From the NCBI GenBank assembly GCA_035496135.1, contig DATJEX010000155.1:1-45126 (forward strand): a stretch of DNA of 45,126 bases, given 5' to 3'. Shown here in pieces: positions 4,869-14,022 of the stretch. The DNA is from Bacteroidia bacterium. Its GTDB lineage: Bacteria; Bacteroidota; Bacteroidia; Palsa-965. The position numbers were made by a program, and so were the translations under genes. The notes under the pieces were generated by a model. That model was not told the DNA's origin. It did not search any database and saw nothing but the letters and a program-made list of their open reading frames with translations. Position 1 is the stretch's first letter; the number at the start of each line of letters is the position of its first letter.

Positions 4869-4945
4869 GATGGAAAAGTACATCCGAAAAATCGCATAAC
4901 AAAAAAACCACCCCGTTTTCACAAGATGGTTTTCAGTACTTGAAG

Positions 4946-5019
4946 CTCCCCGGGCTGGGCTCGAACCAGCGACCCCATGATTAACAGTCATGTGCTCTAA
5001 CCAGCTGAGCTACCAGGGA
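4946..5019 (-). tRNA. tRNA-Asn (anticodon GTT)
   Basis: Reverse complement TCCCTGGTAGCTCAGCTGGTTAGAGCACATGACTGTTAATCATGGGGTCGCTGGTTCGAGCCCAGCCCGGGGAG folds as a cloverleaf. It has a 7-bp acceptor stem, a CT-GTT-AA anticodon loop and a GGTTCGAGCC T-arm. CCA is not encoded. Confidence 0.9.
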
Positions 5020-8725: not shown

Positions 8726-10894
8726 ATGAAAAAGAAAACGCTTCGCAAAAAATTACCATTGGTGAACAGGGAGATCAGCTGGCTCTCGTTCAACGATCGT
8801 GTGTTGCAGGAAGCGGAAGATGACGGAAATCCGTTGCTCGAACGCCTTCGTTTTCTCGGAATTTATTCCAACAACCGTGATGAGTTCTTCCGGGTACGCG
8901 TGGCGACATTGAAACGCCTGGCCAAACTCGGAAAGAAAGCAACCGAGACGATCGGTGGTGATCCTGAATTTGTGATGGAACAGGTGCAGCGGAGAGTGGT
9001 GAGTTCTTCCATCCGTTTCGATCGCGTGTACAAACGATTGCTGAGTGAACTTGAACATCACCGCATTCATATCACCGATGAAAAAGGATTGACAAGAGAA
9101 CAGGGCGAATGGGTGCAGGAATATTTCCGCGAGCACATCATGCCCAATCTTTTCCCGATCATGCTCGACAGCGCTCCTTCTTTTCCTTACCTGAAGGATA
9201 AGTCGATCTATCTTGCCGTGAAACTCGAGCGAAGGGAAAGAAATAAAAAGACGCGGTATGCGCTCATCGAAGTTCCGACCGATTCACTTTCCCGCTTCGT
9301 CGTTCTTCCGCATCGTAATTCGCACCAGTATGTCATCCTGCTCGATGATGTGATCCGTTATTGCCTTGAGGAAATTTTTCCTTTACATGAGTACTCGCGC
9401 GTATCTGCGTTCACGGTCAAACTCACCCGCGACGCGGAACTGGATCTCGATAATGATATTTCGAAAAGTTTCCTGGAAAAAATTTCAGGAAGTGTCAAGA
9501 AAAGAAAGAAAGGCGCGCCGGTCCGTTTCCTTTACGACAAAGCGATGCCTACCGATCTTTTTTCCTTTCTGCGGAAAAAACTGAAAGTGATCAAGCAGGA
9601 CAATATCATTCCGGGATCGCGTTACCACAATTTCAAGGATTTCATTTCCTTCCCGGATCTCGGCCACAAGGAACTGGTGTGGCCCGATGTTCGCCCGCTT
9701 TCCCATCCGCGATTCTCACCTGGCATCAACATGTTCAGCGCCATCCGTGCAAAAGATGTACTGCTGCATTTTCCATATCACTCCTTTCATCACATCATCG
9801 ATCTGCTGCGCGAAGCTTCCATTGATCCGAGGGTGAAAAAGATCCAGATCACATTATATCGCGTGGCAAAAAATTCCAACGTGGTGAACGCGCTCATCAA
9901 CGCGGTGAAGAATGGAAAAGAAGTGGTGGTGGTGATGGAACTGCAGGCGCGATTCGATGAAGAGAATAATATTTTCTGGGCGAACCGTTTGCAGGAAGAA
10001 GGAGCGCGTGTCATCTTCGGTGTTCCCGGGATCAAGGTGCATTCCAAATTATTTCTCATCTCCCGCCATGAAGAAGGAAAGTTCGTGCATTACGCACACG
10101 TAGGATCGGGCAACATGAATGAGACCACGGCGAAGATCTACACTGACAAATCGCTGCTCACCGCCGACCGGCGTATCACCGAAGAAGTTCAGCAGGTCTT
10201 CTCTTTCTTCAGCGATAACCTGAAGCACGGCAATTACAAACATCTCGGTGTTGCTCCTTTCGGTATGCGCAGAAAATTCGTCACGTTCATCGAGAAAGAG
10301 ATCGATCACGCGACCAAAGGCCGCCCGGCATGGATGATCTTAAAGATCAATAATCTTGTGGACCGCGACATGATCCTCAAATTGTACGAGGCGAGCCGTG
10401 CCGGTGTACGCATCAAACTCATCATCCGCGGAACATGCGCGCTCGTTCCGGGCGTGAAAGGTTTCAGCGAGAACATCGAAGTGATCAGTATCCTCGGACG
10501 ATTCCTCGAGCACAGCAGGGTGTTCATTTTTTCCAACGGAGGCGATGAGAAGTATTTCATATCTTCGGCTGACTGGATGACAAGAAATCTTGATCATCGT
10601 TCGGAAGTAGCGGTTCCGATCTATGATCGCGAGAGCCAGCTCGAATTGAGGCACATCATCAGTTTACAGTTGCGCGACAATAAAAAAGCGCGTGTCATTG
10701 GTGGAAGAGAAGAAAATGCATATCGCACTACGCTCTCCAAAAAACCGCTCATCGCACAGGAAGAGATCAGAAGCTTCCTCGAGCGCAAGGCAAAAGCATT
10801 CGGCAGGAAAAACATAAGAAAGAAGAAAGTTGAAGTTCGGAGCAATAGACATAGGATCAAACGCGGTACGGCTCCTGCTCGGAAACGTGTATGA
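8726..10894 (+). CDS. ppk: Polyphosphate kinase 1
   Basis: 722 aa. REISWLSFNDRVLQEA N-terminus and two PLD-like motifs, GIKVHSKLFLI and RFLEHSRVFIF. Confidence 0.95.
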   Translation: MKKKTLRKKLPLVNREISWLSFNDRVLQEAEDDGNPLLERLRFLGIYSNNRDEFFRVRVATLKRLAKLGKKATETIGGDPEFVMEQVQRRVVSSSIRFDRVYKRLLSELEHHRIHITDEKGLTREQGEWVQEYFREHIMPNLFPIMLDSAPSFPYLKDKSIYLAVKLERRERNKKTRYALIEVPTDSLSRFVVLPHRNSHQYVILLDDVIRYCLEEIFPLHEYSRVSAFTVKLTRDAELDLDNDISKSFLEKISGSVKKRKKGAPVRFLYDKAMPTDLFSFLRKKLKVIKQDNIIPGSRYHNFKDFISFPDLGHKELVWPDVRPLSHPRFSPGINMFSAIRAKDVLLHFPYHSFHHIIDLLREASIDPRVKKIQITLYRVAKNSNVVNALINAVKNGKEVVVVMELQARFDEENNIFWANRLQEEGARVIFGVPGIKVHSKLFLISRHEEGKFVHYAHVGSGNMNETTAKIYTDKSLLTADRRITEEVQQVFSFFSDNLKHGNYKHLGVAPFGMRRKFVTFIEKEIDHATKGRPAWMILKINNLVDRDMILKLYEASRAGVRIKLIIRGTCALVPGVKGFSENIEVISILGRFLEHSRVFIFSNGGDEKYFISSADWMTRNLDHRSEVAVPIYDRESQLELRHIISLQLRDNKKARVIGGREENAYRTTLSKKPLIAQEEIRSFLERKAKAFGRKNIRKKKVEVRSNRHRIKRGTAPARKRV

Positions 10895-11738
10895 ATCACC
10901 ATCGGGCCCCATTTTCAAAAAAGCAGATCTTGTACGCATTCCGCTCCGTTTAGGAGAAGACGCTTTCATCCGCAAGAAAATTTCAGACGAGAAGATCGCG
11001 AAGCTCATCACCGCGATGAAAGTCTTCCGCCAGCTTCTCGACTTTTACGAGATCGATGAATACAAAGCGGTCGCCACTTCCGCCATGCGTGAAGCGGGCA
11101 ACGGTGTGGATGTTTCGGCCGAAGTATTGCATGAAGCAGGAATTGCCATTGAGATCATCGATGGAAAAACAGAAGCGCAGATCATCTACTCCAATCACAT
11201 CGCCGAGAAAATGGATCCGCTGAGCAACTATCTCTACATCGACGTTGGCGGAGGAAGTACCGAGCTCACCCTTTTTTCGCAAAATAAAATTGTCATTTCA
11301 AAATCGTTCAACGTCGGAACGATCCGTTTCCTGAATGACCTGGTACCGAAGGAAAAGTGGACAGAGTTCAAAGAATGGATCAAGGCGCAGACGAAAGATT
11401 TTCATCCGCTCATCGCCATCGGTTCGGGCGGCAACATCAACAAGATCTTCAAGATGTCGCGCAAGAAACAGAATCGTCCGCTCACGGTAACGAAACTCAA
11501 AGAGATCCACGAATACATCTGTTCCTTCACACTGAAAGAAAGAATTGAAATTTTAGGATTGAACGAGGACCGCGCCGATGTGATCGAGCCTGCCGGAAAA
11601 ATATTTCTGTCCGTGATGAAAAATGCAGAGATCAACAAACTTTACGTTCCGCAGATCGGAATGGTGGATGGCCTGATCCATCTGCTGTATGAGAAACATC
11701 TTGCGAAGGATAAAAAGGTGCTGACGTTTACGGAGTGA
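10830..11738 (+). CDS. ppx: Exopolyphosphatase, Ppx/GppA family (short form)
   Basis: ASKHA motifs GAIDIGSNAVRLL and YIDVGGGSTELT. The start overlaps the ppk 3' end by 65 nt. Confidence 0.9.
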   Translation: MKFGAIDIGSNAVRLLLGNVYESPSGPIFKKADLVRIPLRLGEDAFIRKKISDEKIAKLITAMKVFRQLLDFYEIDEYKAVATSAMREAGNGVDVSAEVLHEAGIAIEIIDGKTEAQIIYSNHIAEKMDPLSNYLYIDVGGGSTELTLFSQNKIVISKSFNVGTIRFLNDLVPKEKWTEFKEWIKAQTKDFHPLIAIGSGGNINKIFKMSRKKQNRPLTVTKLKEIHEYICSFTLKERIEILGLNEDRADVIEPAGKIFLSVMKNAEINKLYVPQIGMVDGLIHLLYEKHLAKDKKVLTFTE

Positions 11739-11761
11739 TTAAGTCAGGCAATAAAATATTC

Positions 11762-13021
11762 TTACTTCTTTAACTTCCAAAGGGTAAAGAATCCCTTAAT
11801 GTAGTTTTCGGATCCAAAGAAATATTTGTCAGCACTGAAAACCATCAGATGATTTATCCGTTGAACAGTCTTAATATCAATATCAATCCTGCTTATTCTC
11901 TTTCTCGAAAATTCAAACCCTAGGTTTTTCTTGTCTATAGGTGCATTACTAAGAATACAGCAGTGTTTTGGGTCAATCGGGATGATAATCCCATTTGATT
12001 CATTAAATTGTTCATCAAAGACATGATTCTTGATATTCTCTTCTTTATCAACAAACAAAACCGGGTTATCACTGGTAATAAATTCAGAACTGTCGGTGAT
12101 AGTAGCAATTGCAATTCGCTTGTTCCCATGAGCATTTATTACCCGCGGTAAGATTTCCAAAAGATGGTACGCTTTATAATCCTCTTTTATTTTGTCCATT
12201 TCAAAGTGATTTTCTTCTGGGATGGTGCTAAAAAAAAGCTCGAATTGCTTTGGAGTTCGACAGTGCAAACTGAGAAGGAACATTAATAATCGTAAGTGCT
12301 CTTCTTCCTCGAGATACTCGACATTCGTGTCAATAAGACGATTATAGATTTTTGTATAGTAGTCTTCTATCTCCTTCATATAAATCAACTTCTCGACTAG
12401 CATTGGTTCTATGCCACTCTTAACCGTGTAGAAATCTCTTACTACCGTTGCCTTGGAAAGCGGTAAAGGCCGGTTGAACTCCTTCTGCAGATCCTCATCA
12501 TTTGTGTGATTTCGTTTGACCTTATGATAAATAAATGATTCCCCGTTCGAGAAGTTTTTCAGATAACACTTTGGGGTCGTATGTTGATCATGTGTTGGTT
12601 GGGTCGGCTTATATGTTACCTGAACCCATTTAATAAGAAAGTCTGTAGCAATCTTATTGCACATTTCAAGAGTAATCTTTACTGGCACATTTGCTTTTGC
12701 TTGATTAAGCATTGACGCCTTTTTCTTGACTGTAGAGAAAAGAATTTCTCCCAATATTGATTCTCCTTCCGTGCTGCCAAAATCAAAGATCTTCCCAGTT
12801 CTGCTCTTAATAGTAATTGAATGCTTTTGGACTACGACGCAAGTTTGACCATCTTTAAATTTCAATCCGACAAAAGTAATTAGAGTTAAACTGAATTCAT
12901 TTCCATTCTTGGTCAGACTTTCACATGAAATGGCTGGAGAATTTCCCAGTTCTCTAAACTCAATTGTTGGGAAAATCTCTTTGTTAAACGAATAGGAAAT
13001 GAAATCACTTTTTGCCTTCAC
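11762..13021 (-). CDS. DUF4238-like protein with an uncharacterised ~140-aa N-terminal extension (candidate defense gene)
   Basis: Motifs HTTPKCYLKNF, LSLHCRTPKQFE and FITSDNPVLFV match my recollection of DUF4238. GTG start at 13021, with the first in-frame ATG at 12712. About 35% GC against roughly 50% in the flanks. Confidence 0.6.
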   Translation of the reverse strand: MKAKSDFISYSFNKEIFPTIEFRELGNSPAISCESLTKNGNEFSLTLITFVGLKFKDGQTCVVVQKHSITIKSRTGKIFDFGSTEGESILGEILFSTVKKKASMLNQAKANVPVKITLEMCNKIATDFLIKWVQVTYKPTQPTHDQHTTPKCYLKNFSNGESFIYHKVKRNHTNDEDLQKEFNRPLPLSKATVVRDFYTVKSGIEPMLVEKLIYMKEIEDYYTKIYNRLIDTNVEYLEEEEHLRLLMFLLSLHCRTPKQFELFFSTIPEENHFEMDKIKEDYKAYHLLEILPRVINAHGNKRIAIATITDSSEFITSDNPVLFVDKEENIKNHVFDEQFNESNGIIIPIDPKHCCILSNAPIDKKNLGFEFSRKRISRIDIDIKTVQRINHLMVFSADKYFFGSENYIKGFFTLWKLKK

Positions 13022-13141
13022 ATCACTTAAATAAGGTTTAAACGGCTTTGTTCTTTGTGGTTTCTCAACATGTCCAATTTAATGATTAGAATCAATGTGA
13101 ATAGCATCCGTATCTTCGTACTTCAGTAATCCGCACCCCGT

Positions 13142-13897
13142 TTGATTATCATCCGCTTCCTTCGCTCCATTTTCGGTATTTACGGCCTGCTCTTCTCCGT
13201 CGTGAATTTATTCCTGCACGCACCGGTCGCGCTTTTCATCATTGCATTCTTCCCGAAAAGATCACAGATCAGATATGCGCACAAGGTCGCACGCTCATGG
13301 TCGTTCCTTTACTCGCTCTTTCTGTTCATGCCGATGAGGATCAGGAATAAGAATTTCATTGACAGAAATACGACTTATGTGTTCGTAGCGAATCACCGTT
13401 CGCAACTTGATATTCCGGTATACACGCTTGCTTCTCCGAACACGATGCGTTTTTTAGCGAAAGCCGAACTCACGAAAATTCCCATCTTCGGATATCTTGT
13501 GAAAACACTTTACGTGACGGTGAACCGTGAAGAGCGTGCCGATCGTCATAAAAGTTTAGAGGTGATGAAGCGTTCACTCGATGAAGGCGTTTCTGTTTTT
13601 CTCTGTCCCGAAGGAACTCGGAATAAAAAACTGGATCCGCCGTTGCTCGATTTCCGCGATGGCGCTTTTCGCTTAGCCATTGCCTCACAAACTCCGGTCG
13701 CTGTGCTTACGGTGCTCAACAGCGGAGAAAAACTTTCTCCTGTCCGTCCATTCGAACTTGCGCCGGGAACCATTCACGCCGTGTGGGACAAACCGATCGA
13801 GACAAAAGGAATGACGGAGCAAGATCTTCCTGAACTAAAAGAAAAAGTGAGAGCGATGATGATAGAGCACCTGCGCGCATTCAGACAACACTCGTAG
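13142..13897 (+). CDS. plsC: 1-acyl-sn-glycerol-3-phosphate acyltransferase
   Basis: Acyltransferase motifs NHRSQLD (HX4D) and CPEGTRN. Apparent TTG start. Confidence 0.85.
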   Translation: MIIIRFLRSIFGIYGLLFSVVNLFLHAPVALFIIAFFPKRSQIRYAHKVARSWSFLYSLFLFMPMRIRNKNFIDRNTTYVFVANHRSQLDIPVYTLASPNTMRFLAKAELTKIPIFGYLVKTLYVTVNREERADRHKSLEVMKRSLDEGVSVFLCPEGTRNKKLDPPLLDFRDGAFRLAIASQTPVAVLTVLNSGEKLSPVRPFELAPGTIHAVWDKPIETKGMTEQDLPELKEKVRAMMIEHLRAFRQHS

Positions 13898-13908
13898 GTC
13901 GTCGCATT

Positions 13909-13970
13909 GTTGGTAGTTGGTGGCCGCATTAAAGAATGAACTGAGGTATTAACGACCACCAACGACCAAC
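13909..13970 (+). terminator. Imperfect 15-bp inverted repeat (GTTGGTAGTTGGTGG / CCACCAACGACCAAC) downstream of plsC
   Basis: Read directly. 13 of 15 positions are complementary, with a ~32-nt loop and no clear T-tract. Confidence 0.35.
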
Positions 13971-14022
13971 TCATCTGCTACTAACTTTTTCGTACCTTTC
14001 TCCTCCCAAAATCACCTTTCCC

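Follow-up and report, generated by a model that had tools for sequence, protein, structure and literature searches.

An orphan domain fused to DUF4238 in a low-GC single-gene insertion downstream of ppx in a Bacteroidia contig, a candidate anti-phage protein

In the literature searched, the only experimental work on DUF4238 proteins is that of Rousset et al. (2022; PMC9122126), in which a DUF4238 protein encoded in a P2-prophage hotspot conferred strong resistance to T7 in E. coli, its molecular function being stated as unknown. The validated system is named Rst_DUF4238 in DefenseFinder and DUF4238-Pers in PADLOC, and its protein (pFR101, 309 amino acids, aa) was taken here from Table S2A of PMC9122126. 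The gene presented here is located on a contig of 45,126 nucleotides (nt) of a Bacteroidia bacterium (DATJEX010000155.1; GenBank assembly GCA_035496135.1), and this whole stretch is referred to as the window. It is an open reading frame (ORF) of 419 aa with a GTG start at 11762..13021 of the minus strand, found in the ORF list and called as the same product on JGI and Logan contigs, in which an orphan N-terminal domain (N-domain, aa 1-133) is fused to a DUF4238 domain. A first-pass annotation, made from the sequence alone, had described it as a low-GC single-gene island between ppx and plsC and as a candidate defense gene. Genome and sequence comparisons showed that the gene is a foreign insertion and that both parts of the fusion are intact, and the protein may act as a single-polypeptide factor against phages or mobile elements.

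The DUF4238 part extends over aa 135-419. Pfam places PF14022 at aa 146-404 (11810..12586, minus strand) with 89.1 bits against a cutoff of 27 (E-value = 4.5e-25), covering positions 2-278 of the 281 of the model, and the DUF4238 assignment of the first-pass annotation was thereby confirmed. The motifs that it had listed (HTTPKCYLKNF, LSLHCRTPKQFE and FITSDNPVLFV) are all present, and the family motifs QHTTPKCYLKNF, LHCRTPKQF and FITSDNPV are kept. A search with the whole protein led to 75 homologues, 74 of them with 39-57% identity and one with 26%. All 75 carry PF14022 as stand-alone proteins of 243-327 aa, covering 57-69% of the query. Their initial methionine aligns with V135, which is encoded by GTA in the window and is not a start codon, and residues 1-134 are matched in none of the 75 in the alignment. 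All 12 invariant columns of the 76-sequence alignment are kept in the window protein. Concerning its structure, AlphaFold2 (AF2) with a multiple sequence alignment (MSA) gave a predicted local distance difference test score (pLDDT) above 90 over most of aa 140-419, with a dip to 60 at 361-370; a single-sequence AF2 model (pLDDT 34) was dropped. Foldseek with the model of the window protein found nothing better than an E-value of 0.02 in the PDB, and thus none of the solved structures is similar to the DUF4238 domain, which was modelled with confidence. BFVD yielded a single significant match, also the best one to a viral structure: an uncharacterised protein encoded by Stenotrophomonas phage Smp131 (E-value = 1.6e-6), a P2-like phage. 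NCBIfam and PHROGs gave nothing useful for the window protein, and a PDB sequence search with it returned noise only.

The N-domain (aa 1-133; 12623..13021, minus strand) belongs to an orphan family whose sole other member, according to phmmer, BLASTP and alignment, is P0077, a free-standing protein of 131 aa. An exhaustive phmmer search of 1.84 billion representative proteins yielded P0077 as the one real relative, with its residues 3-128 aligned to residues 5-129 of the query (E-value = 8.5e-25, 42% identity), and BLASTP gave 41% identity (E-value = 3e-37). A two-member profile run against 5.8 billion clusters recovered again P0077 alone, and nothing was found by scanning metagenome and viral contigs with the N-domain alignment or metagenome contigs with the full protein. 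A word-indexed search with aa 1-138 gave no match and missed even the window’s own 419-aa protein; negatives of this kind of search on short, rare domains are not trustworthy, whereas the exhaustive search recovered both the window’s own protein and P0077. Neither aa 1-133 nor P0077 matched a Pfam family at E ≤ 10, the two-member profile matched no PDB sequence, and NCBIfam and PHROGs had no match either. The idea that the N-domain is a sensor, put forward in the first-pass annotation, therefore draws no backing from what is an orphan, two-member family with no Pfam or PDB sequence match. The gene of P0077 lies on a 3.3-kb contig (Logan SRR21686415; L081), with genes for a lipoprotein-like protein and a membrane protein ahead of it and a tyrosine integrase (Arm-DNA-bind_5 / Phage_integrase) facing it; it is low in GC relative to its own contig, and tblastn detected no DUF4238 there. 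In the pairwise alignment the methionine of P0077 coincides with the GTG of the window ORF, and the end of P0077 (..DFLRQR-stop) stands opposite ..DFLIKWV, at about aa 133-134. Positions occupied by Gly, Pro, Cys and acidic residues are conserved between the two. Because this 131-aa homologue starts at the position of the GTG, aa 1-133 are read as genuine coding sequence and not as an untranslated leader, as judged by homology. The first-pass annotation had already noted the GTG start and had considered the 103 stop-free codons before the first ATG improbable by chance, and indeed only 2 of 200,000 mononucleotide shuffles stayed open over the 133 codons (p~1e-5).

The two parts meet at aa 130-138 (IKWVQVTYK; 12608..12634, minus strand), as located by the homologue alignments and by reading of the DNA. 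The stop of a P0077-type gene would be expected at about aa 133-134, and aa 135 is where the DUF4238 homologues start. By sequence comparison, the ORF is thus read as a complete P0077-type gene joined, 1-2 codons later, to a complete solitary-type DUF4238 gene. Since the join respects both gene boundaries so exactly, the best explanation of its origin would be that two formerly neighbouring genes lost the stop between them. At the nucleotide level, the window reads ..DFL-IK-W-V-Q-V(GTA)-T-Y, and P0077 reads ..DFL-RQR-TGA followed by an in-frame TGG-ATT (W-I) (L081:1765-1790); Q134 (CAG) is one transition away from TAG. The resemblance of the window junction to the end of a P0077-type gene minus its stop codon is suggestive only. 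As for the new architecture that had been claimed for Bacteroidota, it stands insofar as the host belongs to this phylum and none of the 75 homologues has the N-terminal part, but the fusion is a singleton and is not spread in Bacteroidota.

The segment that carries the ORF covers about 1.35 kb directly after the ppx stop codon (11739..13092), as delimited by the drop in guanine-cytosine (GC) content, by empty sites in relatives and by the return of the native intergenic sequence. Its GC is 0.358 compared to 0.473 for the remaining window, about 6.8 standard deviations under the mean. All other windows of 1354 nt (standard deviation 0.017) never fall below 0.414, and the insert is consequently the lowest-GC stretch of the 45 kb. 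In windows of 300 nt, GC ranges from 0.34 to 0.40 in the ORF and from 0.45 to 0.52 in the flanks, in agreement with the hand counts of the first-pass annotation (~35% vs. 45-52%). Both halves of the ORF are alike (0.351 and 0.369), which fits a joint acquisition, and the insert contains no other long ORF.

In order to compare the junction, a search with the Ppx protein led to 80 loci from Bacteroidota metagenome-assembled genomes (MAGs) at 54-76% identity, in which ppk, ppx and plsC were placed by tblastn. The gap between ppx and plsC is just 3-85 nt in nine closer relatives (L001, L002, L003, L006, L007, L008, L010, L013, and L017). Eight other relatives have different cargo between the two genes, while in two more ppx is directly followed by other genes, plsC being out of range, and a DUF4238 relative was detected by tblastn in none of the 80 loci. 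Specifically, an NTPase of ~400 aa of the AAA_16/nSTAND1/BrxC-like type follows ppx in three loci (L011:6990-8192, L012:7019-8209, and L015:6953-8149), and in L011 its GC is 0.36 as opposed to 0.51-0.54 in the flanks. A HipA_C toxin kinase (L023:8659-9663) accompanies a TPR-histidine kinase and a LuxR regulator in L023, the latter pair being also present in L005, and secreted proteins are the cargo in L009, L014, L018, and L021. In this Bacteroidia lineage, a cargo hotspot lies just downstream of ppx, and the window gene is a foreign insertion at this variable spot, since nine relatives are empty and others harbor unrelated cargo. The horizontal acquisition suspected from composition was thus borne out both by the nine empty MAGs and by the very low GC of the insert.

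The other border of the insert was located through the native intergenic sequence, of which 13093..13141 (plus strand) remains before plsC, as identified by alignment to the empty sites of L003, L010 and L013 and by reading of the junction. At ~13093 the window resumes with ATGTGAATAGCATCCGTATCTTCGTACTT, which corresponds to ATGTGCTACATTCGCGTTTC directly after the ppx stop in L003 and to GCGTATCTTCGTACTT in L013. Because native sequence resumes there, the insert (~11739-13092) consists of the ORF and ~70 nt of its own upstream sequence. This upstream region (13022..13092, minus strand), which came with the insert, was read from the sequence as a presumed promoter and 5′ leader. The −7 promoter consensus of Bacteroidetes is TAnnTTTG, and TAAATTGG at 13081-13074 (minus strand) differs from it by one mismatch; a sigma-70 promoter scan performed no better than in shuffles, with a model that does not cover Bacteroidota promoters. 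A repeat search detected no meaningful flanking repeats at the insert, no target-site duplication and no terminal inverted repeats, and the ORF list, with its one long ORF, leaves no integrase or transposase within the insert. No tRNA was found at the junction (the sole tRNA of the window is at 4945-5019) and no RNA family of Rfam within 11000-14000. Recombination exchange through the conserved flanks is a reasonable guess for the mode of insertion. Additionally, a weak terminator-like hairpin with a 5-bp stem and a T-rich tail is found at 11780-11797 (plus strand), 42 nt past the ppx stop and within the 3′-terminal part of the ORF. It could now act as the ppx terminator; the count of terminator-like sites is no better than in shuffles.

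Regarding the loci of the DUF4238 homologues, their genes are lower in GC than their surroundings in every locus examined. The gene of P0004, a close homologue, shares 4 nt with the end of a TaqI_C gene, which in turn follows a methyltransferase of the N6_Mtase/MmeI type, and besides an integrase their element contains a PriCT primase and an AAA_25 protein; this arrangement (L084:5251-8864) could be an operon coupling DUF4238 to restriction-modification. P0053 shares an island with an integrase and a KAP NTPase, P0050 adjoins insertion sequence (IS) transposases, P0010 has a ParE toxin, a Bro-N protein and a PD-(D/E)XK protein in its vicinity, and P0058 belongs to a block of hypothetical genes with a transposase. 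Finally, P0069 of Tenacibaculum aquimarinum (L088:8001-8846) stands alone between the genes for an M24 peptidase and glycyl-tRNA synthetase, with a GC of 0.265 vs. 0.316 in its surroundings. The window gene presents the same pattern of one gene set between core genes. A conserved partner gene was seen in none of the examined loci, which fits a single-gene system. This solitary, mobile, patchy and sometimes defense-adjacent pattern is what would be expected of a single-gene defense or addiction module, as an association and not as a proof.

We propose a lower-GC Bacteroidota donor for the AT-rich segment of ~1.35 kb inserted directly after the ppx stop, which brought one gene and ~70 nt of its own upstream region. 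Most parsimoniously, the in-frame, end-to-end fusion would derive from a former two-gene pair that lost the stop between its genes, with a mobile-element-associated orphan protein of ~131 aa as the first unit (aa 1-133) and a complete solitary-type DUF4238 as the second (aa 135-419). Translation from the GTG would then give one polypeptide of 419 aa, which may act against phages or mobile elements as a single-gene system. The DUF4238 domain, whose invariant His, Glu, Arg, Lys, Asp and Asn residues form an enzyme-like set, would be the effector, and the N-domain might modulate it by sensing, autoinhibition or chaperone-like binding. To this reading as a whole (a 419-aa protein made from the GTG, a defense factor in a single polypeptide, DUF4238 as its effector and the N-domain as its modulator) we assign a probability of roughly 0.5. 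Its defense component is plausible in view of the family-level homology, of the structural match to the Smp131 protein and of the contexts of the homologues, such as the restriction-modification operon and the mobile islands.

Several results weigh against this proposal. No mechanism for DUF4238 is available from the only experimental study. BLASTP aligns the validated E. coli protein with the window protein only in patches at 26-29% identity, and its function is not safely transferable at such a distance; PADLOC DUF4238-Pers (PDLC03000) gave no match to the window protein at E ≤ 1. The Rst_DUF4238 label of the first-pass annotation is accordingly not supported, the E. coli protein being a remote relative. 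The window domain is also slightly more diverged than its relatives, as it keeps 67 of the 74 columns that are at least 90% conserved (0.905 vs. a median of 0.973 in the relatives), and its loop at aa 365-374 departs from the consensus (K365, N366, S372, and K374 in place of N, G, F, and N). By tblastn, the protein had no relative in 50,697 phage records or 72,556 plasmids, and a search of IMG/VR with the protein or with the family alignment retrieved none either. The fusion is seen in one organism only, so selection has not tried it across lineages; an unfused pair of the N-domain gene and DUF4238 was found nowhere in the material searched, and tblastn detected the N-domain in no locus of a DUF4238 homologue. 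Moreover, the N-domain is modelled with low confidence (pLDDT 30-72 over aa 1-135), and a shorter product could arise from the in-frame ATGs at M104 and M119.

The alternative that survives best accepts the fusion and denies its immune role: the DUF4238 proteins of this Bacteroidota subfamily would have another accessory function tied to mobile elements, such as addiction or toxin-like maintenance or the enzymatic modification of nucleic acids or metabolites, and the phenotype observed in E. coli would not carry over to them. The remoteness of the validated protein, the PADLOC result and the lack of a mechanism in the literature searched all speak in its favor, and so do several homologues established between ordinary metabolic genes without defense neighbours (L088, L090). 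On the other hand, P0004 follows a restriction-modification methyltransferase gene and a specificity gene in operon position, homologues recur in contexts with integrases, IS elements, toxin-antitoxin genes and KAP NTPases, and the site after ppx is filled in relatives with STAND-like NTPases and a HipA toxin. Furthermore, a patchy, solitary and low-GC distribution is typical of defense genes. We therefore regard a non-immune role as rather unlikely, although it is the first to be kept in mind beside the defense reading.

A shade less probable, and in our opinion unlikely, is that only the DUF4238 part matters. Translation would then start at M104 or M119, and the ~100 codons upstream would be the recently inactivated remnant of a neighbouring small gene, co-transferred and accidentally in frame, with no role. 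The first in-frame ATG of the ORF is indeed M104, with a further one at M119, the A-rich AAGAAAAAGG precedes the ATG of M104, and a chance match to TAnnTTTG occurs at ~12876-12869. Additionally, all relatives function without the N-domain, and the fusion is a singleton. Against this stand the first 103 codons, which are intact, 41% identical to P0077 and conserved at Gly, Pro, Cys and acidic positions, in a frame very unlikely to be open by chance. The GTG coincides with the start codon of P0077 and was the start chosen by three gene callers. The frame is closed by a stop 20 codons before the GTG (13021), and no other canonical start occurs in between. Finally, residues 104-133 belong to the N-domain, and a start at M104 would consequently not give a normal DUF4238 protein but one bearing a truncated foreign tail of the P0077-type domain.

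That the gene is decaying on its way to a pseudogene, without a selected function in its host, is very improbable. Its singleton status, the slightly raised divergence at conserved columns, the GTG start and the sigma-70 scan without a promoter would agree with decay, but no frameshift or stop interrupts its 419 codons in DNA of 36% GC, all invariant residues are kept, and the DUF4238 part is modelled with pLDDT above 90. An artefact of assembly or binning, in which a chimeric contig or a lost stop simulates the fusion or the insertion, is the least probable reading, even for a metagenome-assembled contig whose sharp GC change could in principle mark a chimera, because the identical 419-aa ORF with its ppx and plsC neighbours was called on three contigs (45 kb from NCBI, 50 kb from JGI 3300045391 and 4.3 kb from Logan SRR9009773, from samples that may be related to one another), which makes an assembly error unlikely, and because both flanks are collinear with relatives, so that the low-GC piece is embedded and does not mark a contig join.

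Concerning the fold of the N-domain, both AF2 runs predicted strands at 30-39, 42-54 and 60-72 followed by helices at 84-108 and 118-132, and the MSA run adds a strand at 4-9. This predicted order, four strands and then two helices in ~130 aa, presumably resembles the SecB fold. Foldseek gave weak matches over ~125-150 aligned columns, for which the tool does not report the aligned query residues, with E-values of 0.02-0.1 and target TM-scores of 0.26-0.43 for a model with pLDDT 30-72. In the PDB these were SecB, the SecB-like chaperone Rv1957 of a toxin-antitoxin-chaperone (TAC) system (PDB 5mtw) and 2o2a, with probabilities of 0.6-0.93 and target TM-scores of 0.26-0.42, and in BFVD they were phage proteins named SecB. 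In sequence, a relationship to the SecB family was not found, as hhalign gave a probability of 0.07% against E. coli SecB (an approximate sequence) and the Pfam and PDB profile searches were empty. A SecB-like fold of the N-domain, as suggested by the models, is a lead only. A bolder interpretation would treat the fusion as a Rosetta-stone event, with the orphan, integrase-linked P0077-type family (possibly SecB-like in fold) as a functional partner of DUF4238 effectors and the 419-aa protein as a two-module immune protein, in which a trigger-binding or autoinhibitory N-domain gates the enzyme. We consider this version doubtful.

With respect to the neighbourhood, the ORF is antisense to both of its neighbours, and the arrangement reported in the first-pass annotation agreed with the ORF list: 23 nt separate it from the ppx stop (the ppx ORF ends at 11738) and 120 nt lie between its start and the TTG start of plsC (13142). 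The left flank is ppx (10830..11738, plus strand), a Ppx/GppA phosphatase gene (PF02541 Ppx-GppA, E-value = 2.4e-38), and the right flank is a plsC-type acyltransferase gene (13142..13897, plus strand; PF01553 Acyltransferase, E-value = 2e-23), both of native GC and both corresponding to the genes named beforehand. Upstream of ppx, Pfam identified ppk1, a polyphosphate kinase gene (8726-10894). The mechanically called ppx ORF, with a TTG start and 302 aa, has 65 nt in common with the end of ppk (10830-10894), while gene callers on the sister contigs give a Ppx of 283 aa. The true ppx start is for this reason probably ~19 codons further in.

DUF4238 is a validated single-gene anti-phage family without a mechanism in the literature searched, and a natural fusion may hint at how its effector is regulated; the Rosetta-stone interpretation, if true, would be a first handle on how DUF4238 systems are switched on. 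The value of the case is limited by a fusion from one organism, an added domain that is itself an orphan and a defense role that is inferred. It nonetheless illustrates cleanly how a single defense-type gene can be placed exactly behind the stop codon of a housekeeping gene, where other members of the lineage carry STAND-like NTPases or a HipA toxin. As far as the homologues tell, what is new is the end-to-end fusion of a P0077-type protein with DUF4238, which appears unique to this organism, while DUF4238 was already known as a solitary protein.

Compared to known systems, the window domain is assigned to Pfam DUF4238 but to a subfamily different from that of the validated Rst_DUF4238. The pFR101 protein shares with it PF14022 and the motifs H-x4-CYLKxF, RTPxQ and FITSDNPV (BLASTP, hhalign), and hhalign relates it to the alignment of the window subfamily at 94%, with 21% identity over 245 columns. 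PADLOC DUF4238-Pers itself weakly matches a member of this subfamily, P0004 (E-value = 3.2e-4). However, H253, H353 and C354, invariant in the window subfamily, are unmatched in the E. coli protein according to hhalign. Rst_DUF4238 is expected as a stand-alone, single-domain protein of ~290-310 aa (309 aa for pFR101), whereas the window protein reaches 419 aa with an extra N-domain of 133 aa; the former is carried by a P2 prophage and the latter is established at the chromosomal ppx-plsC junction of a Bacteroidia MAG. Both are nevertheless single genes acquired at a variable locus. For the N-domain, the counterpart is P0077, with 41-42% identity to aa 5-129 and coinciding start and end, yet encoded by a separate gene on a contig without DUF4238. 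The solitary Bacteroidota DUF4238 proteins (P0002-P0075, e.g., of Flavobacterium and Tenacibaculum) are of 243-327 aa, start at the position of residue 135 without an N-domain, and none of them is established at the ppx-plsC junction. Over the DUF4238 part, however, they have 39-57% identity to the window protein with all invariant residues in common, and their genes are, like the one presented here, low in GC, patchily distributed and often found in islands or as lone insertions.

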